A DNA stretch of 64,000 bases from Albugo candida (GCA_040437565.1 JBDOQK010000002.1:744001-808000), one strand, 5' to 3'; counted from the first letter of the stretch, positions 5,318 through 55,272 are shown. Notes: generated by a model not told the origin, from the letters alone. A program made the numbers and translations.

Positions 5318-8004
<2,687 letters not shown>

Positions 8005-9073: not shown

Positions 9074-12000
9074 ATGTCCACAGTGTACCCTCTACCTGCA
9101 CTTGCCAGCACTTTCGTGAGGTATTTTTCATAACATCTGTGTCAGGAAATTTGTATTGCAAATTTGTATAAAGTACATTTGCACCTGTATTTGATGCTAC
9201 GTAGTGAGCTCCGCCCTCACTTGCGCTAACACACACAGCCATAGTTGAGTACAGAGCAAACAAGAGCTGCTTCAGGTAAGCTTCCTGATTTAACGTAATG
9301 AAGTCGCCGTTGTTCATATGTCGTGTGGTCTACAGCTCCCATGTCACCACCACCGAACTCAACGCAGTCCGAATATGTCAAGTGTCCGGAACTTTTGTGG
9401 AGTGCAGCCGATTTAGAAAAAAAAGTTGTCATCCGCAAATTATATCGAAAGGTTTGCGTTTTCATATCGCTAATCCCCAGCATCCAATCCTTATATCCTT
9501 GTTAGGTTGAACGATTCCAGTCAGATTGGCGGCGTTGTTATGTCGCGGTATTCGCGAGCAGTCTATATTATTATGATTCTTTAACAGATGCCAAGCCACA
9601 TGGTGTCATTCCTCTATATGGGTGCAAGGTCGACCCAGTTGAGCGTGTACAGCGTTCATACAACTCATTTCCGCCCATGGAATGTGAAAGCCCTTGCAAT
9701 AGTGACCAGGGTGGGCCGTGCTGGAAGTTTATTTCAAGCGCTGGTCGTGTACTGGTATTCCGAACGGAATCTCACGAAGAACGCGACTTTTGGGTTGAAT
9801 ATATCACAAAAGCAACCAATGTCATTTGTTCGACGCTATGTACGGAACTCTGTTCCTTCACATCCGAACCTTCAAAACTTCAAGACGCACATAACGTGGA
9901 CATGATTCCGGAGTTATCTCAGATGGTCCGCGACGCCATTGCATTGGTCAAAACTCAAAAACAGGAAATACAAGATCTCAAAGTGAAGATGCAATCATTA
10001 ACAAATGAAAACGATCAATACAAAATTCAAGTACAGACTTTACAATCGAAGATTACAAGCGCGAAACGAAGCAAGGTCACTCAGAATGTGACGAATCCCA
10101 ACGATTTACTCACTGGGCGATATTATGATAAATCAATCGGTCCTAAGCTACATGCAACGGCCTCACTTCCCTCAATGTCATTCGCAATCAATTCGTCGAA
10201 AAGTTCACTGCAATCGTCAAAGTCAGAAACCTACGACCAGCCGTCTTCCCCTTCTCGTACTTTCATTCCACGCACTCGACCTTTGAGTGCTAGAGCGAGC
10301 TTTGATTTGATGGACAATGATTATATACAACAACAAGCACTTCAAATTGCGGAAATTGCACGTAAACTACAGATCTCAATGGTGAAGAAAGAGCCAATCG
10401 CAGATGCAAAGATATTCCAAACTGTAATAAACGATGGATTTCCGATGTTCATGTTATTTTTAACTTTTGACCGGTTCGGTGTGTAGAAGAATGTTGCACA
10501 AGTGGACGCACCTCTCTCCAAAGCTGCTTTGTCTCNNNNNNNNNNNNNNNNNNNNNNNNNNNNNNNNNNNNNNNNNNNNNNNNNNNNNNNNNNNNNNNNN
10601 NNNNNNNNNNNNNNNNNNNNNNNNNNNNNNNNNNNAGTGCTAGAGCGAGCTTTGATTTGATGGACAATGATTATATACAACAACAAGCACTTCAAATTGC
10701 GGAAATTGCACGTAAACTACAGATCTCAATGGTGAAGAAAGAGCCAATCGCAGATGCAAAGATATTCCAAACTGTAATAAACGATGGATTTCCGATGTTC
10801 ATGTTATTTTTAACTTTTGACCGGTTCGGTGTGTAGAAGAATGTTGCACAAGTGGACGCACCTCTCTCCAAAGCTGCTTTGTCTCAAGTCAACGAGAAAG
10901 AATTCATGCCTTTCCCACCTCAAAATTTTGAAAGTGCTATACGTCGACTCAAGTCTCACAATTCCGCAACTCCCGAACCCACTTCGTGTCACTCAGATAC
11001 TGCATGTCTTCATGAGGACGAAGAGAATCAAATTGCTACTAAGTACGTATTTTATGCTGACCGGCAGCACGAGACTACGATATTGTGATTGGTAGACGGG
11101 GTGAACGAGCGCAATCTATGTGGGAACAGTATACACATCAAGATCAAGAATGGCCGGTAAGAACTAGTATGCCACACGAATGTTTATAGTACACTCAGTC
11201 TTCGCTTAGGATACCAATGTCGTCATAAAGAAAAAACTTGGAATGAGTGAATTCTCGGAATTCCTCCTGGAAGACGGATTATCGTTTCTGGGATGTATTA
11301 TGGACGCTTCAACTCGCGACGAAAAGGTACGTCACTCACTCTCCCTCTTTTCATTAAATTACAATCACTCAATTTTGTGACAGGTGTCCATACTCTATCC
11401 AGTATTACGCTTATTTGCGAGTGAAAAAAGCCTCCATGAGCTTATATTTTGGGCTATCGAAACCGAAGTGGCTTCAGTCAATAATGTGGCCACGTTATTC
11501 CGATCGGACGATTACGCAAGTCGCTTGGTGTTGACGTATAGTAAAGCAGTTGGGTTCAAGTTTGTTCAAAACGTGCTGAGGGAACCGATCCGTAAAGTTT
11601 GTTTGGTCAAAGCCGTCGACGTGGAGCTTCACCCAAGCAAAATCGAGGTTCATTTCTATCAGTCTGCCCTTATTTTTAATCTTACAATTTTGCATCAAGG
11701 ATGTAGAGCGGATACGAGAGAATGCCGCACGTGTGATGGATCTTTGTCAAGAGATACTGAATTCTATAATGGCCAATTTGGATCAGGTCAGATTATGACT
11801 GATATCGAGTGCACGTCTAACGCATCGTTCTTACAGCTTCCAGCCACATTTTATCATATTTGCAATCAATTGAACACTCACGTATTTCATCGATTCGATT
11901 ACCCAATAGAACACAGCAATCGTGAAGAAGGTCGAGAGAATCTCACTCGGGTATGTGGTGAACGCGGAAGGAGAAAGAACACTTATACTTACACGTTTTG

Positions 12001-12916
12001 TGTAGAATGTAGTGGGAGGATTCTTATTCCTCCGACTTATTTGTCCGGCAATCACAACACCTCACTTGTACGAACTCACACAAGAAGCCCCGGCAGGAGA
12101 CACGAGGAAAGTACTCGTTCTTGTTACCAAATTATTATTCAAAGCAGCAACTTGTGTCAAATTTAACGACCNNNNNNNNNNNNNNNNNNNNNNNNNNNNN
12201 NNNNNNNNNNNNNNNNNNNNNNNNNNNNNNNNNNNNNNNNNNNNNNNNNNNNNNNNNNNNNNNNNNNNNNNTCCTCCGACTTATTTGTCCGGCAATCACA
12301 ACACCTCACTTGTACGAACTCACACAAGAAGCCCCGGCAGGAGACACGAGGAAAGTACTCGTTCTTGTTACCAAATTATTATTCAAAGCAGCAACTTGTG
12401 TCAAATTTAACGACCGGGAACCCCACCTCGAGTACGTGATTCCGGTATGTTGACGTAGCGAGGCTCTTATATTATATCGTAGGATTTTGAACGAGTTTAT
12501 CGAACGAAACGCTTCACAGATACAAAAAGTGTACTCGCTCATGACATCATTCCAGCCAAAAGAGCCCGACATTTGCTTCCAAGTAGACAGTGAATCCATC
12601 TTTTCCAATCTCACACTGGAGCAACTCACAAAGGACGAGGATTTGGTACGTTTCACTGTCTAAAGTCTACATCACTCGCATTTGACAATAGTGTGAGTAG
12701 ATCCGAGAAATCGCTCAAGAACATGTGGACGAAATCGAGCTCGCGTTACAGAAAGAAGGATTTGACGATGTCATGCTGGATCAATTACGTCAAGCTATCC
12801 ATTGTGTGGAGAAAACTGGCGAGTTTCTGATCGATCCCACAGCACTTGAAGCATCAACTAAACGATCGTACAAGCTTCGATTTGGGCATTTTGGCCGGCG
12901 AATGCGTGTCCAATAG
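9074..12916 (+). CDS. PH-domain + coiled-coil + RasGAP protein, multi-exon (start approximate)
   Basis: PH: DWRRCYVAVFASSLYYYDSLTDAKPHGVIPLYGCKV...RVLVFRTESHEERDFWVEYI (~9505-9810). Coiled coil at ~9910-10070. RasGAP motifs TLFRSDDYASRL (arginine finger) and VGGFLFLRLICPAITTP. Last exon stops at 12916. Confidence 0.8.
10286..10885. repeat. 250-bp duplication (10286-10535 = 10636-10885) around N gap; likely assembly artefact
   Basis: The same sequence lies on both sides of the 100-N gap. Confidence 0.93.
12028..12415. repeat. 144-bp duplication (12028-12171 = 12272-12415) around N gap; likely assembly artefact
   Basis: The same sequence lies on both sides of the 100-N gap. Confidence 0.93.
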
Positions 12917-12997: not shown

Positions 12998-15900
12998 TCA
13001 TGACGAGTCTACCGCTGGACGCATCTGATCGTTGAGAGTCGATAAAGACCTTCGAATATGCGGCTCCGAATTCACCTCATTTCGTTTTGGAGGCTCGGAA
13101 TCATGCTGTACGATCGCTTGTAAGCGTCTTGAGGCATCGTGGATAGCTGCAAGATCCGATTCCGACATGTTTCGCATGGCGCTTAGTGCGTTATCACTCA
13201 TCGTATGCACGAGATCTCCATGCGCTTGGGCGAGACTGGAGTCACTATCGGTCCCATTACCCGCAAGCGCTGAAATGACACGTTGCTGCTCCATGATGAT
13301 CGATCGCATCTGATGCAGTGATAACTCATCTTCTCGGTCTTCGTGTCGAGAACTCGCACGCAAAATATCTTCGATCACAACTCCACGACTCAGCGCGTTA
13401 TTGTAAAGCAGCCACGTTTGGATTTTCCCTGGAACGTACAAGCCCGCAAATATCAAGATCATCGATAGAGACAAAAGGCCTAAAATCGCGTCATGCACAA
13501 AATACAGATTCTGAACGAGTCGAGCATTACTTCCAAGTATCAAAAGCGCCCAACACCCGATGGCTGCGCCCAGATAATATGTGCTCAACACACATGCCAG
13601 CATCCCCGGGACCAGAAAGAAGGCGATTATCAATGTCAATACGGTCAGAAGAACCAACAGCGACTTCATAAATCGAAGCAGACCGCTTTCGCCGTATTTT
13701 TTCGCATTCAGAAACCAAGACGAAATGACGACATAGACGGATGCGACCTACAGTCAAATTACGATATGATGCGAGTCGAGTGTGGACAGAAACACGAATA
13801 GGAACGTACCGAGAAGCACACAAGGAAGGGCAGCCATGTTTTCATCTTCAAAAGAGAGTGATAAGGATCCCCACTCGGAGCGATCGAGAGAGCAACGACT
13901 GTGAACAAGAGGCCTTTGAGCGTCACACACACTTTAGCAAATGGTCGAAGTGTTGAAAAGTATGCGTTTTCTTCCTTGAACCACGCTTCCCACGATTGAT
14001 TCGCATTCCCTCCATCACCACGCATCCATTTAAACCAAACGCGAAAATCTTCGACGGCATCGGACCATTCGAATGCCAGCGGATTGAACCAAAATGGAGA
14101 AAATGTCTACAAAATGAAAATGAGTGGAACTACCACACTCGATACAATGGAAATACGACGTACCCAACTCAATACCACCAGCCATAACGACCACGTCATC
14201 GCGATATATTGCGTCGATTCCGTGTGCAGATAATACAAAATCAATCCAAACATGATCTCGACACCTGCGTATAAGTGGCTGCTTGCGTAAAAGCGATACA
14301 ACTCATCGAAATGCGAGTGCTTGGTGACAAATCCACGACCTGTAGCACGATATTTCGCTCCACCGGCTAAAATCGTTTGTCCAAAATAAAACCATTTCGT
14401 GCCAATGTGAAAGACAAAATACAAAGGACCGCCAGTGATAAACATCATAAAGATCTCTTGTGCGGCAGCTTTGAATCCTCTTTCCACAGAGATTGTAGCC
14501 ACCAAAGGCGCAGTTGTGAAGAACGCTACTGCACCCAATGACACCTGAAGATTGGAAAGGATCACCGTACTTCGTCCACCAGTTCCTTCCAACGAAAGTA
14601 ATGCTCGTATCAGTGTGCAGTACAGCATAATAAACACCGTCCAAATGACCAGAGACACTGATATGTAAAAGCCGACATTGTTGTAATAGAACGTAAGCAG
14701 CTTGAAAAAGTCGAGACGTTGACTGATACGATACACATCTCTCGATAAAGACTGCTCTGCTGCGCCTTGCGCCAATTTCGCTTCAAATTTATAAATCTGC
14801 TGCATTCCNNNNNNNNNNNNNNNNNNNNNNNNNNNNNNNNNNNNNNNNNNNNNNNNNNNNNNNNNNNNNNNNNNNNNNNNNNNNNNNNNNNNNNNNNNNN
14901 NNNNNNNNGCAGATAATACAAAATCAATCCAAACATGATCTCGACACCTGCGTATAAGTGGCTGCTTGCGTAAAAGCGATACAACTCATCGAAATGCGAG
15001 TGCTTGGTGACAAATCCACGACCTGTAGCACGATATTTCGCTCCACCGGCTAAAATCGTTTGTCCAAAATAAAACCATTTCGTGCCAATGTGAAAGACAA
15101 AATACAAAGGACCGCCAGTGATAAACATCATAAAGATCTCTTGTGCGGCAGCTTTGAATCCTCTTTCCACAGAGATTGTAGCCACCAAAGGCGCAGTTGT
15201 GAAGAACGCTACTGCACCCAATGACACCTGAAGATTGGAAAGGATCACCGTACTTCGTCCACCAGTTCCTTCCAACGAAAGTAATGCTCGTATCAGTGTG
15301 CAGTACAGCATAATAAACACCGTCCAAATGACCAGAGACACTGATATGTAAAAGCCGACATTGTTGTAATAGAACGTAAGCAGCTTGAAAAAGTCGAGAC
15401 GTTGACTGATACGATACACATCTCTCGATAAAGACTGCTCTGCTGCGCCTTGCGCCAATTTCGCTTCAAATTTATAAATCTGCTGCATTCCAACATCTCG
15501 ACCTTTTCCGCACTTGATGTACTCTGGAAATTTGACGGAACCGCCACGAAGACAATTGTTATACCCAGCAAATATATCTTCACTTAGATTGACACCTTTG
15601 CTTGCTTTGCTGATTCCACCTCGCGACATGAAGAAAAGCTTATCGAACACATCGGGATGGCCGTAATGGAGACGCATTCGAAGTGGTTGAGCAAGTGTAC
15701 GTTGTCCCAATGTCACAAACGACGTCTCTTGTAGCGCCATATAATTCGCCAAAGAGCTCACACTTCCAGTGAAAATGTGTTCGGGGAGCCCGACGATTGT
15801 GTATGGACGTTCCGGTAAACCCGAATCGAATTCCTGCAACATATTTCGCATTTTAAGCGCTTCTTCGATGTATCCGTCCTGATTCATATCGATTGTCTGG

Positions 15901-18900
15901 AGATTCTCTCCGCGTGTGAAAATCACTGCAGAATTCTGATTTTCCGGTTTTCCTTCGCCGAGAATTGGATTTCCAGGCAATCGTACGCGATACACTTCTT
16001 CAACACATCCGAGTTCATGGCCGCCTTTTATCAAAACGGCAAAATACGATTGTTCTCTTTGATAATTCACACGAATTTCATCAATGTACGCGACACGGAG
16101 ATTCGGAAATCGTTGTAAGAGGAATTCGATATCGCGCGCTTTGGGGTCATTGTTGCGTTTCTGACGGCCGTAAATCTGACAAGCGACCACATATGTGAAT
16201 TTCGTCTTGACAAGATCTTCGATGTGCTGCACTGGAACTTGCTCGATCTCCGCCAAAAGCCGGATCGCAGCCTCGCCGTACATCAATCCCTGGACAGTTC
16301 GACACAGTGTCTGACCGCGCAACGACGCCCATAGACGAAGTTCCATCGCTGTTTGCGGATCCTTCCACCAATTCTTTTGAGGTTTGACACGCTCTAAAAA
16401 GTTTTCCCAATCGCGTTTGTATAGCGTCTGTAGAAAGAGAAGCGTATGGACATCCAATCCATCACGCTTACTCTCTAAATCTTTGCGAGAATACAACACA
16501 TCTTCTCCATAAAACGGAGTGATCACGGACCATGACTTTGCTTCGGCTAAAAGCGGTGCTAGCGGCATGTCCATAAACAGCGAATTCACAAAGAAGAGAA
16601 GCCGACGACGTGCGTCATACGATCGAGGCTCCGCATCAATTTTCTGCAACGTCAATAACGCATGCAAATGCTGGAGAATCGTGCTCGAATGACGCTCAAA
16701 TGTAAGCAGAGTGATTTGCTCCCCGGTATAGTCGTCATCCCACATAAACCCTCGTTCTTGTGTAAGTATCCACGTCAATCGATCGGAAATGCCTCGACTT
16801 TCAATGAAAAGCGGATCAGTCTCTGGCAAATGTGTCAGCATGTTTTTGAATACGTTTAGAAAGAGTCGTAATTTGTCTCGAACTTGCATGATGTGTGCAC
16901 TTGGAATCACATGATCGCCTTTGCTCTTTGCGTCTTTCGATTTCGCTAAATGTTGCATCGCTGCAATCCGAGCGACACCAGACCCACGACTTCGACGAGG
17001 AACTGTTCCTCCAAGCGATGATAAGCCTGTTGTACTGGCAGATTTCGTCATTCCCACCGATACGCGCGTAGTGAGACCAAGAGAAGCTGCTGGAAACTGA
17101 TACGAAGAGTACTCTGCCGGACTCTTACGCACTGGAATGTATTTGGCATTGCTCTTCCATGACCCGAGATTCCCCATAATCAATAAAAGCAAATCCGTCA
17201 ATGCGTGGCCACAATCATCCACTTTACGCAAATCCATCGCTCGAAAGAGTCCACGTTGCGCCCAAAGACTCAGTGTGCTTGTGATATGACGCACATCGTT
17301 CGAGTGACACGGTCCCAGCACATTGACGAGAACCCAATGTGTGAGCTCCCAAATCTCTTCCAATGCTTCTTCGATCATCGGATGTTGACAGAGAATCTGA
17401 AGCATTTTGTCCTGCAAAGCTCTTTCGGTGACGTTGTTGTCGGACGCGAAAATATCAGAGAGCTTGGAATTGAACACTTCAAAGCAGCCAGCGAGCTGAA
17501 ATTGCGGTAGATAGATTTCTCGCTGGTATCCTTCCACCCGTTGAAATCTCAGTAATGTTTTCTCCTGATTGCAAATGAGATCGTCGGCACGCATACTTTC
17601 GATAATGCTGTCCCATGCGACCGAAAACGAGAACCATTTCTGTCGACGACGCAATTTCACTTCATCGGCTGTTTGTTTGCGTCGTGAAAATGATAAAAGC
17701 GGTGTTTCATCGCTCGCCGAAGATGTTTTGTAATACTGAGACGACGAACTCGCAGTGTCGGAAATCTGATCCAACACCTCATTTCCAACGGACCCGTACA
17801 CATTCGACATACTCTCTGTGATTTTCTGCCCGGTTTTTGACTTGGATGCAATCAATTTCGAGTTGAATGCATCGGCTGCTCGACCAAATGCCGCACGTAA
17901 GCGATGAAAACTTCGAATTTCTCCAATGTGAGACGCAAATCCCACAAATGTTCCAGTGCATGCAGCCCACAGTGAGCTCCAAATGGTGAGATCGACACAG
18001 TACACCAGAAAAAACGGAAACCATTGAATCACAATTAAGAACGCTGTTGTCACCGCACTGACATCATATTCGATCTGATCGCGATACAAAAGGTACGAAG
18101 GGACCACCAGTGGACGTATTTCAAATTGATAGCTGAAGATGAGCTTCCATATCACTAGAGTGAGCCAGTACATCTGATAGCCGATACTCAGATGCGCAGG
18201 ATCCAGCACATTATCGCCCACATACAAGCGATTCATTGGGTTCAGAAAGTCTCGGATGGAAGCTACAGGCTTGCATTGGGTCCGTCGAATCCAATTATTG
18301 GCATCGGGAATGACTTGTAAGATGGCATTCATGATCCCTGGAAGGTGGAGTGTGGTAGCGACGACGTAATACAGTGTCCACGAGGTGCCATCTTTACTCC
18401 AAGCGTTCCAATACAGAGCCAATGTGACGACTGTGATGATCAAATAGTACACAGTCCACACGACATCGCGTAAGAGCGGTCGTACTCCAGTTACCGGATT
18501 GTATATGGCCACAACATCCATTCCGCTTTTGATGATTGAGAGAAAGAATCGCATAATAAGAGCACTTGAGCAAAGTCTTACGATCGTATGAATTGGATGC
18601 TCCATTTCGACTCCAAACGCTAACGCCGCAAGGAAATGAAATGTGACCACTTTGAATGCAAAGATACGATAAAACGCTCGAAGTGATGCAAGCCACGTCC
18701 TTTTCTCCAAAAACGTCTTTGGATGTGCGGCGATCGCTTCCGCGACACTGAGATTTCCACCACGAAAGGAAGGAGCATGCGCGATACCCATTTGATGAGG
18801 TCCGTCGTATGGACCTGATGGTCTTCCGGATGTCTTATCGTGTCCGAAAGAGTTTGATCCGCCAAATAATAACGCGGAATTTGGTGAGAAGACCTCATTC

Positions 18901-21566
18901 ACTTTTTCGTATTTGTAGTCGTAATTCAAACACTCTTTCTGCCAAAAGAATTCATTGAAATCGTCATAATTCTGTCGATATTGATGATCGTAATTCGAGC
19001 CGAGTTGTGTCTTGAGCAGCAAATACACTGGAGTAATCACAGTGTCGAGAAAGTGGCCAGGATCACGTCGACTTGAGCGATTGGAACAGTATTCAGCCTT
19101 CATTTTATGATACAAAAAACAGAGATATTCCGGACAATGGCGAAGATTGCTTGCTTCACCCCAAATGAACAGGTACAGGCACAGATCGATATTCATCTCA
19201 TCCAACGCGGTCCATTCGGACGGACTTGTTGTATCGATCGTCCAGTTGTTGCACGGGATCTTGAGCTTATGACACCACTTCTTGTAATTGCTAAACATAC
19301 GATCGTGAACCACGCGGTAGCTGTTTTGTCCATTTCGTGAGCAATTTGTCAGTAGCATAACCAAATGTTCCGTCTGATTGCGAAGATTATCTGTTTGGAA
19401 TCCAAAGTGTTTTTGAACGGATACGGCGTGGTTGAATACAGTGCTGTATGGCTGCATGTGCGCTGGTAACTCGGAAGGTGCAAAGAAATTCGCTCTCTCC
19501 ACTGATGTATCATCCGGACGCCACGATCGAGCAGCAGAGCTGGCAGAGATCGAGTGGATGGATCCATCCTTCTTCCCATTCAAGTCGTTGTTTTTCCCGG
19601 GTTCATTGTATCCAAGCCGTCTCAATTGTCGCGAAGTAATACAATGGAACACCACCGCTCCGGTGAATGAGATCATCAAAGCAGAGTACAGGATGTAGCA
19701 GTCTTTCGTGTGCATGTCGACGGTGCTGTAGCCCACACCACCCAGGATATGTCCGGTCATTTGCAGCAAATATCGCCAGTATTTGTCATCCCCAAACCAA
19801 TACGACGCAGATGCTATGAGATTCAGTGCACCAAGAAACGAGGTCGTTACAATGAGACTCAAGTCGGCGATCAAAGGTACGAATTCAATGAGAAATCCAA
19901 CGAAGAAAAAAATTCCACAAATGATTCTGACGATCGTCACATTCACAAAGGGACCCGAAAGAATTCCCACATAGAATCCGCTCATAGCACCAAGCGCTCC
20001 CACTGGAATGATCGCTGCTAATGCACCAAACACCACACCGCAGAGACAAGCCAAAGTCGTGTGAATCCATGCAAATTGCTCCAATTCCTCGACACTGAAG
20101 ATTGCATGACAAGAAACAGCCAGGAATAAAGTAGCAGAGTAGAATGTCACCCAAGAAGAGAATTTCGAGCCCCAGATCATTACGAAAAGACTCATAAGTA
20201 ACGTGATTGCCGCAAATAAGCTGGTGAGGCCATATACGACGTTGAGGGATGCGTACCAGGGAAGACCGTACTCTACTGGATGCAAGTGGATCCATTCTTG
20301 ACTCGGGAAAAGCTCAGGATCGCATCCAATGGACGTATATTCATTCACTGGGCCCTGGTACACACGAACGTAATCGATTGTAAAGTTGGAAGGCCAAATA
20401 GAGTCACAGATTTGACCCTCACAGGGAGGAGAGAATTTCTCTGATACAGCTGTACTGAGAATGATGTAACTAGGCTCTACAGGAATTTGACGAGGAGGGA
20501 TTCCATCGACCCATTGGTTGAGTGCTTCGCCTGGAATTTCAAATACAAACACATTATCAAGCCACCAACGTAGGTACCCATGCGGTCCCGGCATCCAGTC
20601 TAATTGATACAGATGAAAGCTATTGAACGAATTGGACTCGAGCTGGGTAACAGCTGAGATAGAATCGAGCCCCATTTCTCCGTAATAATCGCTGTTGATG
20701 CGCGTAAAATTACCAAATTTGAGGTCTTCGTACCATTGACCGGGTCCCGGTAATGTTTCCGAGGCTGGACGGCGATTTGGAAATAATGCAGGACGGATTT
20801 GTAATGACGTTGAAATAAATGCTGGTGTGTCCCGTAATTTAATTTGAGCTTCCATGATATCAATTTCAGTCGAGCCGCGTCCTTGGAAAGGATTCAAACC
20901 GTAATTTTCAGGGTAGGAATTTTTCACGTGTTTATCGGTTTTATTACCACAAGCATTTATTTTCTGATGTATTTTTTCACCATTTTCTACCCACCACGAA
21001 CACGCATCAAACGACCATGGCCACGTTCCAGCTTGAGATCCCAAGTACGTTGCGCGTCCGAGATTGCCCATAAGCCAAATTGCGGGCCATGTGCCAGGAA
21101 TGCCCCACTTACCAGGCAGAATAGCTCGTACTTCCACAAAACCGCCCGTGAAACAGAATTTGTTCCATGTTTGCACGCTACCACTCACATAACGTGCTCC
21201 TTTGTATCGCTTCTTTGGCTTGGATGACGTGATGACCAAATTGCCTTTGTCCACTTGAACAGCTTGCGGTAAGAAGTAATGCTGCCCCATGTTCGTGACA
21301 TCGCGATGATCGATTGCGGTCCATTTAGAATCGTACCCGGATTCAAAGATGCGGTTTGATACGTTAAATTCGTCCGAGAAAATGAGGCGGTACGTGGTGT
21401 TGGTTCCGGTGTAAATGGAGTGATTTCCATTGGGGATGTCTTTTGTGTACTGGTCTTTTGGTGTACAAGGATCGATCCACTGGCTGTTATTGTGAATACT
21501 TGTTTTCACATGTGGAAACGCACATAGTGTAGGAAGCAGTGCGAGTAGCACGCCCAGCACTACCAT
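12998..21566 (-). CDS. Fusion protein: signal peptide + KRE6/SKN1-like GH16 + TMEM198/DUF4203-like TM module + FKS1-type 1,3-beta-glucan synthase (GT48); ~2588 aa after removing the gap duplication
   Basis: GH16: LIFSDEFN, SGSVQTWNKFCFTGG, WPAIWLMGNLGRA, GRGSTEIDIMEA, IDYVRVYQ. FKS1 domain 1: LYLFIWGEASNLRHCPEYLCFLYH, NYDDFNEFFW. GT48: ARRRLLFFVNSL, LRLWASLRGQTL, GEGKPENQN, QTIDMNQD, RLHYGHPD, SKASKGVNLSEDIFAG. Introns at 14107-14163 and 13748-13809; stop at 12998. Confidence 0.92.
14226..15491. repeat. 583-bp duplication (14226-14808 = 14909-15491) around N gap; likely assembly artefact inside the glucan synthase gene
   Basis: The same sequence lies on both sides of the gap; merging the copies restores one open frame. 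Confidence 0.95.
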
Positions 21567-21612
21567 ATTATGTACAATATGGATTGGTCAAGATTGCAAG
21601 TAAAGCGAGGAA

Positions 21613-21630
21613 CGCAACTCAAAAGTGAGC
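21613..21630 (-). promoter_or_regulatory. Candidate oomycete initiator/FPR core promoter element for the glucan synthase fusion
   Basis: The minus strand reads GCTCACTTTTGAGTTGCG 47-64 nt upstream of the ATG, resembling the oomycete GCTCATTYY...TTGC element. Confidence 0.45.
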
Positions 21631-22027
21631 ACTATGGAATGTAAGTGTTTTGAGTTGTGAGGAATTAGGAGGAGTGAATGAATGGTCGAGTTGCTATCAA
21701 AGGTTCTTTCGAATCTATTCGATCTTGTCACCACTCAAACCTCAAGATCGTTTTACATGGGCCAGTCTTGCGGGTTCATATAGTCGCGTGAACCGACATC
21801 ACTTACCATACAAACAAGTCTATAAAAGACCTTGATAGGCCAAAACACATTACTGATTAGGAAGAACCCACTCACAAAACCTGATTCGAATTTTTATTGC
21901 AATCTTTTTCTTCTTTTTTGTTATACTATAATCATTCCAAAATCATATCATGCTGTTATCACATCGACACGTTTCATATAACATATCATTCGGATCACCA
22001 ACCGTTTGTATCTGATTCGTATTCAGA

Positions 22028-24279
22028 ATGTCACTACTTCGATCCCTATCATCGAAATTCCGTCATTGCGTCCATCGACCTCCTGCGTCCATCACCAAGC
22101 ATGCAATCACTACACAGTACCGTACATTCAGCAGCAAGACGATCCGAAATCTGGCCATTGTCGCCCATGTCGATCACGGGAAAACCACTCTAGTCGATCA
22201 ATTGCTCAAGCAAGGCGGTAACATGCTACTCGAAGAGCGAGTGATGGATTCAATCGAATTGGAGCGAGAACGTGGAATCACCATCATGTCAAAATGTACT
22301 CGTATCGAGTATGAAGGACACGTTCTCAATATCGTCGACACACCGGGCCACGCAGATTTCGGAGGTGAGGTCGAGCGCATATTGAGTATGGTCGACGGCG
22401 TTGTATTGGTTGTGGATGCTACCGAAGGTCCAATGTCCCAAACCAAATTCGTACTGTCAAAAGCGCTGCAACGAGGTCTTAAACCGCTCGTTGTTATCAA
22501 TAAAGTTGACCGAGAAACAAGTCGATTGAATGGTGATGTCGAGAATGAGCTTTTCGATATGTTTATGGCACTGGAAGCAAATGACGAACAGCTTGAATTT
22601 CCAATCATCTATGCATCTGCAAGGCAAGGGTGGGCTGTTAGAGAAGTCGATAGTACGAAAGAAAAAAGAGAGAGTATGAAGGTACTTCTCGACGAAATCA
22701 TCGCATACGTCCCCCCACCAACGGCTGACCCCAACGCTCCTTTTGCGATGTCGGTCACAATGATCGGGTACGTAACGATTGAGCGAGTCGAGCAATGCCT
22801 TTCCTCATAACGTCGACTGTATTAGTCACGATCCATACGTTGGTCGTCTTGTTACAGGTCGTATTTACGGCGGGGCTGTCAAGGTGAGCGGGTCCATCGA
22901 TATAAGAATTTGTGTTCTCACACCAACGAAATAGATTGGTGATTCCATCCAAGTAATCAATCGAGACGATAAACGATTAGAAACAGGAAAAGTGACAAAG
23001 CTATTTGTGACAAGAGGTGTATCCAAGTCAGAAGTTCAGCATGCAAGCGCAGGTACAGATGAACGTACATTGAGTGAGAATTCTGTGATTGACAGAATAT
23101 CGTAGGTGATATCGTCACTCTCGCTGGTGTGAATGCATTCGTGTCCGACACCGTGTGTAATCCGAGCGTTAACGAGTCAATCCCTACTCCAAAGCTTGAT
23201 CCGCCGACAATTTCCATGACATTTGGTGTGAACGATTCGCCTATCGCCGGACAGGATGGAAAATATCTCACGTCGTCACACATCAAAGATCGACTGACAC
23301 GAGAAACGGAGGTACCTGAGTAACAGATTGATATCATACTTGCTGGATATCATCGGTTGACTCAAATGTAGAATAACGTGGCCATATCGATCTCTAAAAG
23401 CGATTCCTCAGAAGCGTTTGACGTTCATGGTCGAGGAGAGCTCCAACTAGCAATTCTTATTGAGGAAATGCGTCGTGAAGGATTTGAAATGTGTGTTTCT
23501 GCTCCTCGAGTCCTTTTCAAACAGTGCCCGGATACAAAGCAAAAGTTGGAACCGATCGAAGAAGTAACTATCGACGTTGATGAGGAGTATTCAGGCACTG
23601 TGATTGATAAGCTCTCCACTCGTGGAGGTGCCATGATCGACTTTAAACCGATTCAGGACAAAGTCCGGTTACAGTTCAAAATCCCAAGTCGTTGCCTGAT
23701 GGGATATCGAAGCGAAGTCAAAACCGATACCAGAGGAAGTGGTATTCTTCACTCCATTTTTCATGGGTACGAGCCGTATCAAGGCTCTGTTTCTCCGCCC
23801 ACAAAAGGCAAACTGATCTCGTCCGCGAAAGGAACGACCACCGTAAGTGATCTCTTCGCTGATTGTCAGACTCATTGATATATAATCTCTCTCTATTAGT
23901 CGTATGCTCTCAATACATTACAAGACCGAGGCGAATTGTTTATCAGGCCTGGCGATGAAGTATACGGTGGTATGATTGTCGGAGAACATAATCGACCACA
24001 AGATATCGAAGTGAACCCAACCAAAGAGAAGAAATTGACCAATATGCGTGCAGCCGGAACAGTAGGCTTTTTATCGTCGACAGTGATCACTGACGCATAA
24101 CAGATATCTTTTTGTAGGATGAAAATATTCAATTATCACCGTCCCGTATCATGGCGCTAGAGGATGTAGTTACTTATATTGCTGAAGACGAGATGATCGA
24201 TATCACACCCAAGCAAATTCGCATTCGAAAACGAGCGCTGACAGCTTCTGCAAGAAAACGCTCACAAGGGAAACACTAG
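22028..24279 (+). CDS. typA: TypA/BipA translational GTPase with mitochondrial-type presequence, multi-exon
   Basis: [83 protein letters not shown]. The N-terminal ~38 aa are Arg/Ser-rich with no acidic residues. Stop TAG at 24277-24279. Confidence 0.93.
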
Positions 24280-24586: not shown

Positions 24587-27500
24587 ATGGCGGATAACGG
24601 CCTCGATTTGTTCAAAGCGTTTGAGGCGACAGAAACGCTAAGCAATGAAGAGCAATTACAGCACATAAGTTCCTTGCATGAAGAAGGTTCTATATCCACA
24701 AAACGCAAGCAATCACCCGATACAGCGCTTACTGAGCCCGACAAAGTCACAACGAAAAAAACACGTCTGTCAGAATCGGTGGAGCACAAACTCGAAACAT
24801 CGCTCAGTGAACCTTCAAACGACAATACTTCGGAACTTCCTCTCTCCACTGCTGTTCGTATTGTTAAGGGAAAATTTATTGACGAAAGACCTGAAGCAGA
24901 GACGGAGAGAAATGCGCCTACCCAATCGACTGATCCATCGCATTGTGTGGCTACAGGCACACAGCATAAAAACCTTATCTCCTACTCGGTGTATCCTCCC
25001 GATTTCGTTCCTGAAAAGGCAGAGTTAACCAGCAAGGAGACAAAGCCACCAGCCAAAGAATATCCCTTCCAGTTGGATCCGTTTCAACAAGCCGCAGTAG
25101 ACTTTATTGAAATTAATGAATCAGTTCTCGTTTCTGCCCATACTTCGGCTGGGAAGACTGCAGTTGCTGAGTATGCTATTGCCAAATCATTGCGTGATAA
25201 ACAGCGCGTCATCTACACTTCACCGATTAAAGCTCTCAGTAATCAAAAGTATCGTGATTTGGAACAAGAATTCAGTGATGTTGGACTAATGACTGGTGAT
25301 GTCACCATCAACCCATCGGCCACTTGCCTCATTATGACGACAGAGATCTTACGAAGTATGCTCTATCGTGGTTCTGAGATAATGCGAGAAGTAGCTTGGG
25401 TAATTTATGATGAGATTCATTATATGCGTGATAAGGAACGAGGCGTTGTGTGGGAAGAAAGTATTATTCTTTTACCACACAAAGTCCGCTTTGTATTTCT
25501 TTCTGCTACAATTCCAAATTCCAAAGAATTTGCAGCTTGGATATGCTACATCCATCATCAGCCGTGTCATGTTGTGTACACTGATTATCGACCGACCCCA
25601 TTGCAACATTACGTGTTTCCTGCCGGAGGGAACGGACTTCATTTGGTTGTGGACGAGAAGGGAAAATTCCGTGAAGATAACTTTCAAAAAGCGATTGCAA
25701 CACTGACCAATTGTGTGAATCAGGACACGGAATCCATTGATATGACAACATCTGGCGGTCCACGACGTAAACGAGGCAAGACTGGAGGTATGAGTGCAAA
25801 GAAGAAAGTTGGCTCGGATGTGTATCGTATCGTGAAACTGATCATGGAACGACAGTATGATCCTGTGATTGTATTCTCATTCAGTAAGCGTGAGTGTGAA
25901 GCGTACGCGTTGCTTATGGCCAAACTCGATTTCAATTCCGACGAAGAGAAGGAAATGGTCGAACAAGTCTTTCGAAACGCGATTGACTCGTTATCCGATG
26001 ATGACAAAACACTGCCTCAGGTCGATGCGATTCTCCCCCTTTTACGGCGTGGTATTGGCATTCATCATGGTGGCTTGCTTCCCATCTTAAAAGAAGTCAT
26101 CGAAATCATGTTTGGCGAAGGTTTGTTAAAGTGTTTATTCGCAACAGAGACATTTTCTATGGGTCTCAATATGCCCGCGAAAACAGTTGTATTCACAAAT
26201 TGTCGCAAGTACGATGGCAAAGACTTTCGTTGGATCACATCTGGCGAATACATCCAAATGTCGGGGCGTGCAGGTCGAAGATCAGTGGATAGTCGTGGTA
26301 TTGTAATACAAATGCTCAGTGAGCAAATGGAACCGCATGTCGCCAAAGGGATTTTGTACGGTCAAGCCGACCCGCTGTACAGCGCATTTCATCTCGGCTA
26401 CAACATGCTGCTGAATCTATTGCGTGTGGAAGATGCAAATCCCGAGTATATGATCAAGCAATCATTTCATCAATTTCAAAGCGAGCAAGCCGCTCCAGCA
26501 TTACAAGAAGCCGTGGAACGTATACGATCCGAGAAAGATCAGATTCGAATCAAAGATGAAGCTGACGTAGCAGAATATTATTTCCTCTCGAAATCCGTCA
26601 TCAAATTGAAGGAGCGATTTCTTGCTATTCGGAATGAACCAGATCATCTCGTACGCTTCTTGAACGGTGGACGATTGATCAAACTCTATAGCAAGCCTGG
26701 AAGCAGCAATTCGGGTCCAGATGCCGAGGATGAACAATGGGATTGGGGCGTTATTGTCAATTTCACAACCAAGGTCGCGAAAGATGCGACATTGGCTCGA
26801 CCAGATGTCACCGTACACGTTCTTTTGCATTGTCAGAATCCAGAGTCGTCAAAAACGCATGATGGGGGGCTGCCCCGACCGGCGCCATTGGGCACTCTTG
26901 GGGCTACATCTTCCAAATACGAAATGAAAATTTGTCCGGTTCCTTTGGGTCTTGTTGACAGTATTTCATCGTTGCGAGTTTTCATTCCCAAAGATCTGCG
27001 AACTGTTGAAAGTCGCCTTTCAATCGGCAAATCCGTAAAAGAAGTGCTTCGGCGATTCCCCGAAGGACCTCCATTGCTGGACCCGATCGAAGATTTAGCC
27101 ATCGAAAATGAAGAATTTACTCAGATCATCAAACAGCTCAGCGAGACGGAAGAGAAAATCAAATGCACAGGTTTTCATCACGCTAAAGACAAATTGACTC
27201 GGTTTGCGTTGTACAATCACAAGATGGAATGTGAAGCGAAAATCCGAGAGCTCGAACGACAAATTCGAGATTCCAAGTCGCCAGTGTTGCGGGATGATTT
27301 ACGTCGAAGACGTCGAGTGCTGCGTAGGTTGGAATTTGTGGCGAAGGACGGCGTTATTCAGCGCAAGGGAAGAACAGCTTGTGAGGTTTCGACCGCTGAT
27401 GAGCTGTTAGTGACAGAAATGATGTTCAATGGAGTTTTCAATGAGCTCTCAGTGAAGGAGATTGTCGCGTTACTTAGCTGTTTGATCAATACGGAAAAGG

Positions 27501-27880
27501 TCAAAGAAGGCCAAAAGCCACCAACAACCACGCTCGAAGCACCAGTTCGCCAGCTTCGTGAGACTGCTCGACGAATCGCGACCATCATGCAAGATGCCAA
27601 GATCAGCATCAACGTGGAAGAATACGTGGAATCCTTCAGCACGACTCTAGTGGACGTCATGATCGCTTGGTGTGAAGGAGCCAAATTCTCGCAAATATGT
27701 AAGATGACAGACATGTTTGAAGGCTCTGTGATCCGGTCCATTCGTCGTCTGGAAGAGCTGCTGCGGCAATTGACTGTTGCAGCACACACAATTGGAGATG
27801 TCGAATTCGAAAAGAAATTCGAAGAAGGATGCCGGAAAATCAAACGTGATATTGTGTTCGCTGCATCTCTCTACCTGTAG
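24587..27880 (+). CDS. MTR4: Exosome RNA helicase MTR4 (SKIV2L2/Dob1), intronless
   Basis: SAHTSAGKT, YTSPIKALSNQKYR, DEIHYMRDKERGVVWEE, FLSATIPN, YIQMSGRAGRR, arch/KOW insert and C-terminal IKRDIVFAASLYL. Confidence 0.96.
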   Translation: MADNGLDLFKAFEATETLSNEEQLQHISSLHEEGSISTKRKQSPDTALTEPDKVTTKKTRLSESVEHKLETSLSEPSNDNTSELPLSTAVRIVKGKFIDERPEAETERNAPTQSTDPSHCVATGTQHKNLISYSVYPPDFVPEKAELTSKETKPPAKEYPFQLDPFQQAAVDFIEINESVLVSAHTSAGKTAVAEYAIAKSLRDKQRVIYTSPIKALSNQKYRDLEQEFSDVGLMTGDVTINPSATCLIMTTEILRSMLYRGSEIMREVAWVIYDEIHYMRDKERGVVWEESIILLPHKVRFVFLSATIPNSKEFAAWICYIHHQPCHVVYTDYRPTPLQHYVFPAGGNGLHLVVDEKGKFREDNFQKAIATLTNCVNQDTESIDMTTSGGPRRKRGKTGGMSAKKKVGSDVYRIVKLIMERQYDPVIVFSFSKRECEAYALLMAKLDFNSDEEKEMVEQVFRNAIDSLSDDDKTLPQVDAILPLLRRGIGIHHGGLLPILKEVIEIMFGEGLLKCLFATETFSMGLNMPAKTVVFTNCRKYDGKDFRWITSGEYIQMSGRAGRRSVDSRGIVIQMLSEQMEPHVAKGILYGQADPLYSAFHLGYNMLLNLLRVEDANPEYMIKQSFHQFQSEQAAPALQEAVERIRSEKDQIRIKDEADVAEYYFLSKSVIKLKERFLAIRNEPDHLVRFLNGGRLIKLYSKPGSSNSGPDAEDEQWDWGVIVNFTTKVAKDATLARPDVTVHVLLHCQNPESSKTHDGGLPRPAPLGTLGATSSKYEMKICPVPLGLVDSISSLRVFIPKDLRTVESRLSIGKSVKEVLRRFPEGPPLLDPIEDLAIENEEFTQIIKQLSETEEKIKCTGFHHAKDKLTRFALYNHKMECEAKIRELERQIRDSKSPVLRDDLRRRRRVLRRLEFVAKDGVIQRKGRTACEVSTADELLVTEMMFNGVFNELSVKEIVALLSCLINTEKVKEGQKPPTTTLEAPVRQLRETARRIATIMQDAKISINVEEYVESFSTTLVDVMIAWCEGAKFSQICKMTDMFEGSVIRSIRRLEELLRQLTVAAHTIGDVEFEKKFEEGCRKIKRDIVFAASLYL

Positions 27881-39497: not shown

Positions 39498-40053
39498 GCA
39501 GAGCAACTAATATTCGGTATTGTTTTCGCACTCAAAGTTCATTGCTGTGACTGCGAGTGGAAATGCGACTCAGGATCAAGTCTTATTCGCATTGCTACGT
39601 TCATATGTACGAAGGACATCACAAGGTGAGCAGTTTGGTAATTTTGGTGATGTGAGGCAACCGCACAAGTGGACTGTCGACAACGACACATTCTGAACTC
39701 GCAGGCACTTCCATCCAACTTTTTGNNNNNNNNNNNNNNNNNNNNNNNNNNNNNNNNNNNNNNNNNNNNNNNNNNNNNNNNNNNNNNNNNNNNNNNNNNN
39801 NNNNNNNNNNNNNNNNNNNNNNNNNGCAGAGCAACTAATATTCGGTATTGTTTTCGCACTCAAAGTTCATTGCTGTGACTGCGAGTGGAAATGCGACTCA
39901 GGATCAAGTCTTATTCGCATTGCTACGTTCATATGTACGAAGGACATCACAAGGTGAGCAGTTTGGTAATTTTGGTGATGTGAGGCAACCGCACAAGTGG
40001 ACTGTCGACAACGACACATTCTGAACTCGCAGGCACTTCCATCCAACTTTTTG
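39498..40053. repeat. 228-bp duplication (39498-39725 = 39826-40053) around N gap; likely assembly artefact
   Basis: The same sequence lies on both sides of the 100-N gap. Confidence 0.93.
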
Positions 40054-47098: not shown

Positions 47099-49274
47099 AT
47101 GCGCGTCAATCAGGTTCGATTGCATGGCAATTATCGCACAAGGTGAGACACCCGAGTGAATCCAAACACACCAAACGATTAACTATATTATTTCAATGCA
47201 CTTCCCAACCAGACCTGAAGTTTTTGAGTGCGAATTGGAGGTAGACGACTAATTTGAAAATTGCAAAGAGATCCAATATTATACCTTATTTTTGTAGAAT
47301 ACATTTCACGCACGCGGAATCAATGAAATNNNNNNNNNNNNNNNNNNNNNNNNNNNNNNNNNNNNNNNNNNNNNNNNNNNNNNNNNNNNNNNNNNNNNNN
47401 NNNNNNNNNNNNNNNNNNNNNNNNNNNNNATCGCACAAGGTGAGACACCCGAGTGAATCCAAACACACCAAACGATTAACTATATTATTTCAATGCACTT
47501 CCCAACCAGACCTGAAGTTTTTGAGTGCGAATTGGAGGTAGACGACTAATTTGAAAATTGCAAAGAGATCCAATATTATACCTTATTTTTGTAGAATACA
47601 TTTCACGCACGCGGAATCAATGAAATATATAAAGAAGTCACCTTCTCGACTGAGAAACTAGCCAATCTGGAGATATTTGACGCAATCGATATCAAACTCG
47701 ATAAATGTATGCGCAAAATGCATCTAAAGGCAGTGCTTAGCTGATCGCTCTGTAAAAAGCGAGCAATCGAGACCCTCATCAAGTAGATGTGGTCATTACT
47801 GTCAAGGAAAAAGACTGGAAAGAATTTAATTTGGGCGTGAAAACAGACGGATACGATGACTCATTGGTGAGAAAGATGATATTTGGGGAGTACCGTATGA
47901 TCACATAATATCGAATTATGATACTAGGAAGCATCTTGCGTACTGATCAATCCATTAGGTACTTCGGAAAAGTTTGATTTCAAATCAACGTATGGATGGA
48001 GTGGTAGTCATGTCGAGAGTATTAGTCTCATGAAGCCTCAGTTTATGGGCTACCCACTCTACTTTTCCACAGCCGTGTTCAATGATCTCCAGGTCAGTAA
48101 TGCCAGTTTGAGTACTGATATCGTTGGAGCTAAACTTATTCGAGAAGAATCATGAGAAATTGAGCTCGTACAGAGAAAGTCGCAGAGGTAGCCATATTGC
48201 AATAAATGATCAAGCGGAACGGCATAAAGTCCTATTCAAATGTGATCGTCGCGACATTCTTCCGCAGCGAAATCGTTACCTTTCTACGGCATTTTGCTCG
48301 TCACCAAATATTCTAGCCGAAGCGGAACCCTCAACCAAAACGAGTGTAGAATATCAGTTTCAAATGGACTCTCGTGATAATCCTATGATGCCGTCGTCGG
48401 GTGGATTGCTACGCTTCAGGTACAGCGAATTTGAATCTCTTTTAAAAGTACTTATCTATTTGCTTTTTACAGCACAGAAGTGGCAGGGCTTTTTGCTGAT
48501 GTTCGTTTCCTGAAAAGTCAAGTTGAGGCACAAAAACATGTTACGTTTGGTTTTGGATCGCAAAAAAAGGCTGCATTGAGTTTGAGTTTACTTTCACGCT
48601 TGGGTAAGGTCTAGTCCTTTTCAGCCGGTTTTGATTCTGGCTATGGCTTCTTGTAGGAGCAATGAAGTCCACGAGTTCACAAAGCAGTATGAGTAGGATC
48701 AGTGATCGATTTTTCGTTGGAGGCCCAATGAGTCTTCGAGGCTTCCACTATCGAGTAAGACATACCTCGTCGATATCTCATTCATACATGCATCTATCTA
48801 CAGGGTATTGGTCCTCGTGCGAGTCCTCGTGATGGTGGCGTCGCGAGTGGAGATGCGTTAGGTGGTGATGTATTCTATACAGCTGCAGCATTTGTGGGTT
48901 TTCCAATGCCATTTTCGTTGCATTCTGTGAGCAAAAATGAATGATACACTTGTCAGCCAGCTCATCTTACGTGTCTGAATGACAGCTATTGGGACTCCGA
49001 GGACAGCTTTTTGCGAATTTGGGCAATGTGACAAACTGGCAAAACGTCAAAGTAGGCTCTTTACGAAACCTCTTGAGTGAAACACGAGTAGCAGTTGGAT
49101 TCGGGGTAGTCGTGCCATCAACTGTAGGGCGTATGGAAGCTAGTTACTGCTGGATTCTGAATGCGTTACGTCATGTAATGTTCAGAATGAGTTCTCGAAA
49201 GGTACAAGACTGAGTGCGTTGTGATGTAGGATCACATTTCCCGTGGACAATTTGGTATTGGTATCACTTTTTGA
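47099..49274 (+). CDS. SAM50: Sam50/Omp85 mitochondrial sorting and assembly machinery subunit, multi-exon
   Basis: POTRA start MRVNQVRLHGNYRT, DSRDNPMMPSSG, ISDRFFVGGPMSLRGF, GDALGGD, GLRGQLFANLGN, and C-terminal beta-signal GQFGIGITF*. An in-frame upstream ATG exists at 46976. Confidence 0.9.
47133..47626. repeat. 197-bp duplication (47133-47329 = 47430-47626) around N gap; likely assembly artefact
   Basis: The same sequence lies on both sides of the 100-N gap. Confidence 0.93.
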
Positions 49275-54918: not shown

Positions 54919-55272
54919 TCATCGATTGCGTTAAAGTCTTCATGGGATTTCTTCCTGAAAGCACGTATAACGGCATTGAGTGTCACGTCGATCTTACCTG
55001 TACACCCACTTACATGGATGAGCGCAATGATGTTCCGACCGAGTANNNNNNNNNNNNNNNNNNNNNNNNNNNNNNNNNNNNNNNNNNNNNNNNNNNNNNN
55101 NNNNNNNNNNNNNNNNNNNNNNNNNNNNNNNNNNNNNNNNNNNNNTCATCGATTGCGTTAAAGTCTTCATGGGATTTCTTCCTGAAAGCACGTATAACGG
55201 CATTGAGTGTCACGTCGATCTTACCTGTACACCCACTTACATGGATGAGCGCAATGATGTTCCGACCGAGTA
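54919..55272. repeat. 127-bp duplication (54919-55045 = 55146-55272) around N gap; likely assembly artefact
   Basis: The same sequence lies on both sides of the 100-N gap. Confidence 0.93.

Follow-up and report, generated by a model that had tools for sequence, protein, structure and literature searches.

Does a single gene of Albugo candida encode both a synthase of beta-1,3-glucan and the enzyme that would remodel its product, or have two adjacent genes been run together by an error of assembly or of gene calling? The question is raised by a locus at positions 12998 to 21566, on the minus strand, of a stretch of 64,000 nucleotides (nt) from this species (GCA_040437565.1, JBDOQK010000002.1:744001-808000; hereafter, the window), in which a preliminary description had recognized a KRE6-like GH16 domain fused to an FKS-type GT48 glucan synthase. 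We find that the fusion gene is real, ordinary and already known. Its product is probably one membrane protein of 2588 amino acids that couples the production of beta-1,3-glucan to its branching. Taken as a whole, the earlier interpretation is partly supported.

From the ATG at 21566 down to position 14910, the minus strand holds a single stop-free frame of 2219 codons, and the elements that define the fusion lie within it:

21504..21566, minus strand: hydrophobic segment at the N-terminus, resembling a signal peptide, residues 1-21, MVVLGVLLALLPTLCAFPHVK (Kyte-Doolittle 19-residue mean 2.16)
20268..21485, minus strand: SKN1/KRE6-type GH16 domain, residues 28-433 (PF03935, 243 bits, E 6.5e-72)
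20850..20867, minus strand: GH16 catalytic E-I-D-I-M-E (E234, D236, E239), from motif conservation
19617..20240, minus strand: membrane block from GH16 to FKS, residues 443-650 (AlphaFold2 secondary structure and hydropathy)
18924..19187, minus strand: FKS1 domain 1, residues 794-881 (PF14288, 82 bits)
14922..16364, minus strand: core of the GT48 glucan synthase, residues 1735-2215 (best stretch of PF02364, 588 bits)
15564..15590, minus strand: conserved GT48 motif N-L-S-E-D-I-F-A-G, residues 1993-2001

The three Pfam profiles proposed as a check in the preliminary description all score well above their cut-offs (in bits, 30 for PF03935, SKN1_KRE6_Sbg1; 27 for PF14288, FKS1_dom1; and 37.2 for PF02364, Glucan_synthase). 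The same description held that the frame contains no intron and no gap. This is correct for the 2219 codons from the signal peptide to the GT48 core, but not for the whole span 12998-21566, in which there are a gap of 100 N, a duplicate of 583 bp and two introns.

In the GH16 half, the PF03935 match, which places it in the SKN1/KRE6/Sbg1 family (GH16 subfamily 2), extends over profile positions 95-477 of 501, and solved GH16 laminarinases match this part weakly. The protein begins with MVVLGVLLALLPTLCA, which is hydrophobic and signal-like in a hydropathy scan, and a hydrophobic start is also present in the orthologs P0003 and P0036. The E-x-D-x-x-E motif is intact at the place previously reported, within GRGSTEIDIMEA (residues 229-240, 20882..20847). 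Its residues E234, D236 and E239 are invariant in all 15 aligned proteins, beside many other invariant GH16 residues, and the pattern E[IVL]DxxE is found in 39 of 39 oomycete-type proteins (P0002-P0040). An AlphaFold2 (AF2) model of residues 1-1200, made with 24 aligned sequences (mean predicted local distance difference test, pLDDT, 62; predicted template modelling score, pTM, 0.37), shows beta strands through residues 41-404, with pLDDT below 50 over residues 168-307. Oomycetes also have several other long KRE6-family proteins beside the fusion; in one of them, P0132 of Phytophthora kernoviae (2737 amino acids), PF03935 matches eight times, for a total of 707 bits, alongside a teneurin-type EGF match, the KRE6-like GH16 domains being arrayed in tandem along a single chain.

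The other half qualifies, from its sequence, as a member of the GT48 family by its profile match, by the FKS1 domain upstream of the core, by the core motifs and by the flanking membrane segments. Cryo-EM chains of FKS1/GSC2 (9wzs, 7xe4) match the core with phmmer E values between 8e-96 and 2e-93. Six motifs are aligned with those of yeast FKS1/GSC2: GNPILGxGK, IDxNQD, HYGHPD, SEDIxAG, CGKGRD, and TGRGF. The SED motif is intact, as had been stated, in the form NLSEDIFAG (15590..15564), whose aligned counterpart in yeast GSC2 is HLNEDIYAG; N, L, E, D, I, F, A, and G are invariant in 15 of 15 proteins, and S1995 is nearly so. A motif of this type occurs in 34 of the 39 oomycete-type proteins, the five without it being two partials of about 1260 amino acids, one model of 1733, and two others, with 2389 and 2464. 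Residues 1204-2067, the predicted large cytosolic domain, have hydrophobic segments on either side (967-1203 and 2068-2448).

Between the two halves, the AF2 model has seven membrane-length helices (443-465, 470-490, 493-517, 521-536, 543-562, 564-591, and 622-650) and one short polar helix. The last long helix is followed by an R/K-rich stretch, RQLRRLGYNEPGKNNDLNGKKD, as expected for the cytosolic side, and residues 648-694 are predicted to be disordered (pLDDT below 50). Because the start is signal-like and the number of linker helices is odd, we infer from the model that GH16 lies on the non-cytosolic face, with the FKS N-terminal domain and GT48 in the cytosol. The earlier proposal that GH16 faces the side on which GT48 extrudes its chain agrees with this odd count, insofar as a model with a mean pLDDT of 62 predicts it. 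The linker may be a seven-helix domain of the TM7S3/TMEM198 type, which is a lead and not a family membership: in the ESM Atlas, 29 of 30 linker matches are PF13886 clusters (score 0.93), with a recognition value of 2122, under the mark of 2300. PF13886 is detected in four of 15 aligned orthologs at E<=0.01, its precomputed label is carried by 14 of the 44 long GH16 matches described below, and the linker of Phytophthora P0003 reaches 29.0 bits for a cut-off of 29.2. The window linker itself has no Pfam match at E<=1 and does not reach the PF13886 cut-off.

The complete gene, read to its stop, is laid out as follows:

12998..21566, minus strand: whole gene (3 exons and 2 introns), interrupted by an assembly gap and a duplicate
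14909..21566, minus strand: exon 1, portion before the scaffold gap, 2219 stop-free codons with all three Pfam domains inside
14809..14908, no strand: intragenic scaffold gap of 100 N, an assembly artefact; P0002 is continuous there
14226..14808, minus strand: exact 583-bp second copy of 14909-15491, an unmerged contig overlap, omitted when reading the gene
14164..14225, minus strand: exon 1, final 62 nt
14107..14163, minus strand: intron 1, 57 nt, GT..AG, spanned by the ortholog alignment
13810..14106, minus strand: exon 2, 99 codons, beginning with TFSPFWFNPLAFEW
13748..13809, minus strand: intron 2, 62 nt, GT..AG
12998..13747, minus strand: exon 3, 249 codons and the stop, encoding C-terminal membrane helices and a tail

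With the duplicate collapsed and both introns spliced out, the coding sequence is 7767 nt long and encodes 2588 amino acids, exactly the length given in the preliminary description. In the list of open reading frames (ORFs), the gene is split because the gap and the duplicate together introduce an offset of 683 nt, which shifts the frame. The direct repeat around the gap (14226-14808, identical to 14909-15491 over 583 bp) is not peculiar to this gene: exact flank duplicates of 127-1140 bp are present at 10 of the 10 N-runs of the window, which are, with 100 N each:

6458-6557, 10536-10635, 12172-12271, 14809-14908, and 39726-39825
47330-47429, 55046-55145, 58555-58654, 60161-60260, and 63133-63232

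Across the window, these duplicates are unmerged overlapping contig ends. The 583-bp copy is an assembly artefact, since all ten gaps are flanked in this way and since P0002, a protein of 2258 amino acids from other public assemblies, reads through the gap junction uninterrupted. P0002 ends at the stop that is met when intron 1 is read through. More generally, genes that cross any gap of this assembly will all be frame-shifted or partly doubled. A contig of 7974 nt from another public run, possibly not independent of the sample of the window, spans 14909-21744 unbroken, with 13 substitutions and no indel. One of its ends lies 178 nt upstream of the ATG, and its length equals 178 + 7767 + 29 nt, which would fit a spliced mRNA by arithmetic only, the type of run being a guess. 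Positions 21745-22002 are covered by no contig of the public data sets X1 and X10, which give identical figures and are possibly one data set. Among the sequencing runs found to contain this sequence, none is recorded as RNA. The deposited A. candida protein P0177 (NCBI KAL0592354.1, 2719 amino acids) matches the 2588-residue model over residues 1-2207 and then repeats from residue 2006 on, with gaps, as if it had been called across an unmerged duplicate resembling that of the window.

The window gene is, from sequence comparison, a deposited and named Albugo gene, the ortholog of a gene conserved across oomycetes. Its model differs in five of 2588 residues from A. candida CCI39288.1 (2588 amino acids; UniRef A0A024FXJ7), which is named '1,3-beta-glucan synthase' and belongs to the same 90% cluster; A. 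laibachii F0WVN6 (2585 amino acids), from this cluster too, is 92% identical to the model. A search with the GH16 part, restricted to proteins of 1220-3884 amino acids, returned 44 matches, of which 39 contain PF02364 and PF03935 together, and two more are truncated models with PF03935 and PF14288. The architecture search suggested in the preliminary description thus finds the GH16-GT48 pairing across 12 named oomycete genera: Phytophthora, Nothophytophthora, Bremia, Plasmopara, Hyaloperonospora, Peronospora, Pythium, Lagenidium, Aphanomyces, Saprolegnia, Achlya, and Thraustotheca. Orthologs from Phytophthora, Pythium, Saprolegnia, and others have the domain order, length, and motifs of the window protein, with full-length identities of 64-67% (peronosporalean) and 57-58% (saprolegnian), and nothing of substance distinguishes the window copy from them except its assembly gap and duplicate. 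PF03935 is carried by 36 of the best 120 matches to the GT48 core; the other 84, without it, are mostly ochrophyte (diatom-type) or plant enzymes. When residues 1-881 were searched against 1.84 billion representative sequences clustered at 50% identity, six fusions were found among the best 150 matches (P0033, P0204, P0043, P0133, P0139, and P0163), and the nearest GH16 relatives were otherwise stand-alone proteins of about 400-700 amino acids.

These data also answer the suspicion that neighbouring genes were merged, to which the visibly imperfect assembly, with its ten gaps each accompanied by an unmerged duplicate and one of them intragenic, might lend some weight. However, the junction from GH16 to GT48 lies in 6.6 kb of gap-free, stop-free sequence, the same contiguous sequence is found in the contig of another run and in Logan-derived proteins of 2258 amino acids from several contigs, and the architecture recurs in the 12 named genera. 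A merged-gene artefact is refuted by these three observations, and we consider such an origin extraordinarily improbable. The unbroken ORF and the recurrence of the architecture in 39 of the 44 long GH16 matches bear out the earlier view that the fusion is a real single gene and not an artefact of the gene model.

Domain trees, which are quick trees with support from the SH-like approximate likelihood ratio test (SH-aLRT) only, agree with this placement. In the GT48 tree, the fused clade (support 100) contains a peronosporalean set of 13 rows (99) to which the window protein belongs, and the oomycete fused clade is sister to unfused ochrophyte GT48 (99). In the GH16 tree, the window protein belongs to a 9-row fused clade (100), and its GH16 groups weakly (81) with a stand-alone GH16 of a diatom. 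The genus names Aulacoseira, Amphiprora, Pseudo-nitzschia, and Chromulina of the tree rows were completed from abbreviated source names. Six fused proteins from metagenomes and Logan assemblies (P0050, P0052, P0030, P0037, P0034, and P0044) branch below the Saprolegniales/Peronosporales split, the first five as deep branches of the oomycete fused clade, P0050 and P0052 having 63-66% identity in the GT48 core. From their position, these deep branches may represent early-diverging oomycetes or close relatives, in which case the fusion would be older than the named genera.

The two halves can be compared with several known systems. Kre6 of Saccharomyces cerevisiae, which has a role in 1,6-glucan synthesis, and Skn1 belong to the same Pfam family as the window GH16, PF03935. 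Likewise, Fks1/Gsc2 of this yeast (PDB 7xe4, 9wzs) match the GT48 core (E about 1e-93 to 1e-96), with shared motifs, the main stretch of the alignment covering only 98-454 of the 580-residue core. Unlike the halves of the window protein, these yeast proteins are encoded by separate genes. The nearest unfused relatives of the two halves are the GT48 synthase BGS and the Kre6-like TGS1/2 of diatoms (chrysolaminarin), which are also encoded by separate genes and have a vacuolar, storage role. Diatom Kre6-like proteins consist of a signal peptide, a GH16 domain, and one C-terminal helix (PMC2173943), a layout that can be joined head-to-tail onto the N-terminus of a GT48 and from which a fusion with a single-helix linker, as in the second set described below, would start. 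The Ags1 protein of Schizosaccharomyces pombe offers another parallel, drawn in PMC13612389, since it combines an intracellular synthase and an outer transglycosylase-type domain in one polypeptide; however, its families are different and its polymer is alpha-1,3-glucan.

The closest functional counterpart is the Ghs2-Bgs3 'synthase-remodeler module' of S. pombe, described by Willet et al. 2026 (PMC13612389). According to the parts of that study which concern this pair, the GH16 protein Ghs2, which has an EXDXXE motif, binds the GT48 synthase Bgs3, and an AF3 model places the Ghs2 GH16 domain outside the membrane, adjoining the Bgs3 extrusion pore. Ghs2 and Bgs3 are mutually dependent for localization, branched beta-1,3-glucan requires both, and the Ghs2 variants E414A and E419A, altered in EXDXXE, are non-functional although the complex forms (PMC13612389). 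The module is proposed to introduce beta-1,6 branches into beta-1,3-glucan while the chain is being made. The window protein resembles this pair in having an EXDXXE GH16 beside a GT48, the position of GH16 on the outer face being modelled there and predicted here. In contrast, Ghs2 and Bgs3 are two polypeptides, and Ghs2 has its one helix N-terminal to GH16 (type II-like), whereas in the window protein a signal-like segment comes first, then GH16, and then the membrane block.

The idea of a covalent counterpart is also in print. Willet et al. 2026 (PMC13612389) mention the fusion of GT48 and GH16 in oomycetes in their Discussion, as the covalent counterpart of Ghs2-Bgs3 and as restricted to oomycetes, with Judelson 2017 and Morris 2009 as sources. 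In the main text of the latter (PMC2705460), none of the terms glucan synthase, SKN1, KRE6, callose, PF03935, or PF02364 occurs, and the fusion may be recorded in its supplementary tables. In PMC7965971, which includes A. candida among the species analysed, GT48 and GH16_2 are treated apart, and the sections on these families mention no fusion. The gene, its architecture, and the idea of coupling were therefore all previously known, and the doubt about novelty expressed in the preliminary description was justified, the protein being deposited for both A. candida and A. laibachii and the fusion and the coupling idea both appearing in PMC13612389.

By analogy with Ghs2-Bgs3, we propose that the window protein couples polymerization and 1,6-branching. 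Its predicted layout would comprise, in order, a signal-like start, a KRE6/SKN1-type GH16, about seven helices, an FKS1-type N-terminal domain, six helices, the cytosolic GT48, and C-terminal helices. GH16 would thereby reside extracellularly or in the lumen of a vacuole, and GT48 in the cytosol. Using UDP-glucose, GT48 would polymerize beta-1,3-glucan and move the chain across the membrane. Beta-1,6 branches would then be added to the chain as it emerges by the tethered GH16, acting as a transglycosylase that cuts and re-joins it. Synthesis and branching would in this way be coupled in one polypeptide, as a covalent version of the fission yeast pair. The product may be the wall glucan made at the plasma membrane, the storage mycolaminarin of vacuoles, or both, and we lean slightly towards the wall or both.

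Several points weigh against this proposal. The helix count comes from a model with a mean pLDDT of 62 and a pTM of 0.37, and a crude hydropathy scan gives five to six peaks; large parts of the GH16 model (residues 168-307) have a pLDDT below 50. The activity of the KRE6 family is itself unsettled, incorporation of UDP-glucose into glucan having been reported for a haptophyte homolog (PMC10543733), an activity other than classical transglycosylation. Post-translational cleavage has been suggested for other stramenopile fusion proteins (PMC2173943), and a purely wall role is opposed by a published GT48 tree in which every Gyrista enzyme falls with the chrysolaminarin synthase of diatoms and is read as a storage enzyme (PMC7965971). 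The last two points each lead to a distinct explanation. If the protein served storage only, it would reside in vacuoles or endomembranes and its GH16 would branch mycolaminarin in the lumen, as proposed for diatom BGS/TGS. The sister position of the oomycete fused core to unfused ochrophyte GT48, the weak grouping of its GH16 with a stand-alone GH16 of a diatom, and the characterized Phaeodactylum tricornutum enzyme beside which Gyrista GT48 are described as 'likely involved in laminarin biosynthesis' (PMC7965971) are consistent with such a role. On the other hand, oomycete walls are rich in beta-1,3/1,6-glucan and require a synthase at the plasma membrane, the main backbone of this glucan being made by GT48 (PMC7907477), and no unfused oomycete GT48 paralog was present among the 120 best core matches, bar one truncated model; the fused type may therefore serve the wall too. 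We regard an exclusive storage role as possible, though rather unlikely.

Cleavage of a precursor into a free GH16 and a conventional GT48, acting separately or as a non-covalent pair, would be in line with what was suggested for other stramenopile fusions (PMC2173943) and with the predicted disorder of residues 648-694. However, the protein has no visible cleavage motif, and its linker is a conserved multi-helix membrane block instead of a loose tether, so that we judge this outcome improbable. Another explanation is that GH16 has no enzymatic function and acts as a structural or trafficking partner in the folding, export, or placement of GT48, like Sbg1 of S. pombe, a KRE6-family protein without a GH16 catalytic domain that serves Bgs1 (PMC13612389). 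The mutual dependence of Ghs2 and Bgs3 for localization is compatible with this, and in a fusion from a euglenid, P0163, neither glutamate is left (GRGSPSVDVFRV), so a non-catalytic tethered GH16 can persist. Nevertheless, E-x-D-x-x-E is kept in all 39 oomycete-type and all 15 aligned proteins, and the glutamates of Ghs2 are required even in the assembled complex (PMC13612389); there is little likelihood, in our estimation, that the window GH16 is purely structural. Coupling of synthesis and branching within one polypeptide is the reading that we retain as probable.

Is the fusion confined to oomycetes, as the published statement has it? With the divergent match P0043 as a query, a second set was found in which GH16, FKS1_dom1, and GT48 occur in the same order: P0043, P0133, P0134, P0135, P0136, P0139, and P0137 (4377 amino acids). 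These sequences come from metagenomes, with the exception of one MMETSP transcript (P0134). Like the oomycete fusion, they have a signal-like beginning, GH16 at the N-terminus, and linker helices that are odd in number, and they retain G-A-P-E-I-D-x-x-E; unlike it, they have a single hydrophobic helix between GH16 and FKS1_dom1 (in five of five scanned: P0043, P0133, P0134, P0135, and P0139) in place of the seven-helix block. Their identity to the window protein is 28-31% in GH16 and 34-43% in the GT48 core, and they branch outside the oomycete and ochrophyte group in both domain trees. An independent origin of this second set is suggested by these placements. An approximately unbiased (AU) test on 24 rows, from which the very long branches P0137 and P0163 had been dropped, did not reject a single origin when all 16 fused GT48 cores were placed in one clade (p = 0.082), and P0043 had a branch length of 10 in the first GT48 tree.

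A further case is the Eutreptiella gymnastica protein P0163 (UniRef A0A7S1JEU0, 3294 amino acids), in which PF03935 (220-636) lies upstream of PF02364 (2374-2945). Both glutamates of the GH16 catalytic motif are replaced in this one transcriptome-derived protein, the GH16 of which stands beside an unfused protein in the GH16 tree and, from its sequence, is probably inactive. Euglenid paramylon is unbranched, and the loss of the glutamates would fit such a product. Contrary to the printed statement, the KRE6-type GH16-GT48 fusion may not be oomycete-only and may have arisen two or three times (in oomycetes with a roughly seven-helix, possibly TMEM198-like linker, in a second protist lineage with a single helix, and in a euglenid without the glutamates), the number of linker helices being odd each time as if one topological requirement held for a remodeller at the exit of the synthase. 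We hold this composite reading tentatively, our doubts slightly outweighing our confidence. No paper that describes such fusions outside oomycetes (in euglenids or haptophytes, for example) was found within the literature searched, and the modestly novel part of the present work may be that the printed 'oomycete-only' statement is too narrow.

The gene itself adds nothing new, since the protein is deposited and both the architecture and the proposed coupling are published. Its value is that of a natural 'Rosetta stone' for the claim that GT48 synthases and KRE6-family GH16 proteins are parts of one machine, for which experimental support is recent and comes from fission yeast. If independent fusions, odd linkers, and a dead GH16 accompanied by an unbranched glucan were all true, they would turn what is now a curiosity of one lineage into a general design principle in the synthesis of branched beta-glucan, and would also provide a comparative test of the role of GH16. 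Glucan synthesis in oomycetes is a possible target for the control of crop diseases, on which the present results have no direct bearing.

The genes surrounding the synthase in the window have no evident link to glucan synthesis. Upstream and divergently oriented, a GTP_EFTU-type GTPase ORF (22028-22810, plus strand, 182 bits) starts 462 nt from the synthase ATG. It is followed by an MTR4/SKI2-like RNA helicase (24587-27880, plus strand; DSHCT 190, MTR4 beta-barrel 159, and DEAD 97 bits). On the other side, a RasGAP fragment (11384-12166, plus strand) abuts the gap at 12172.

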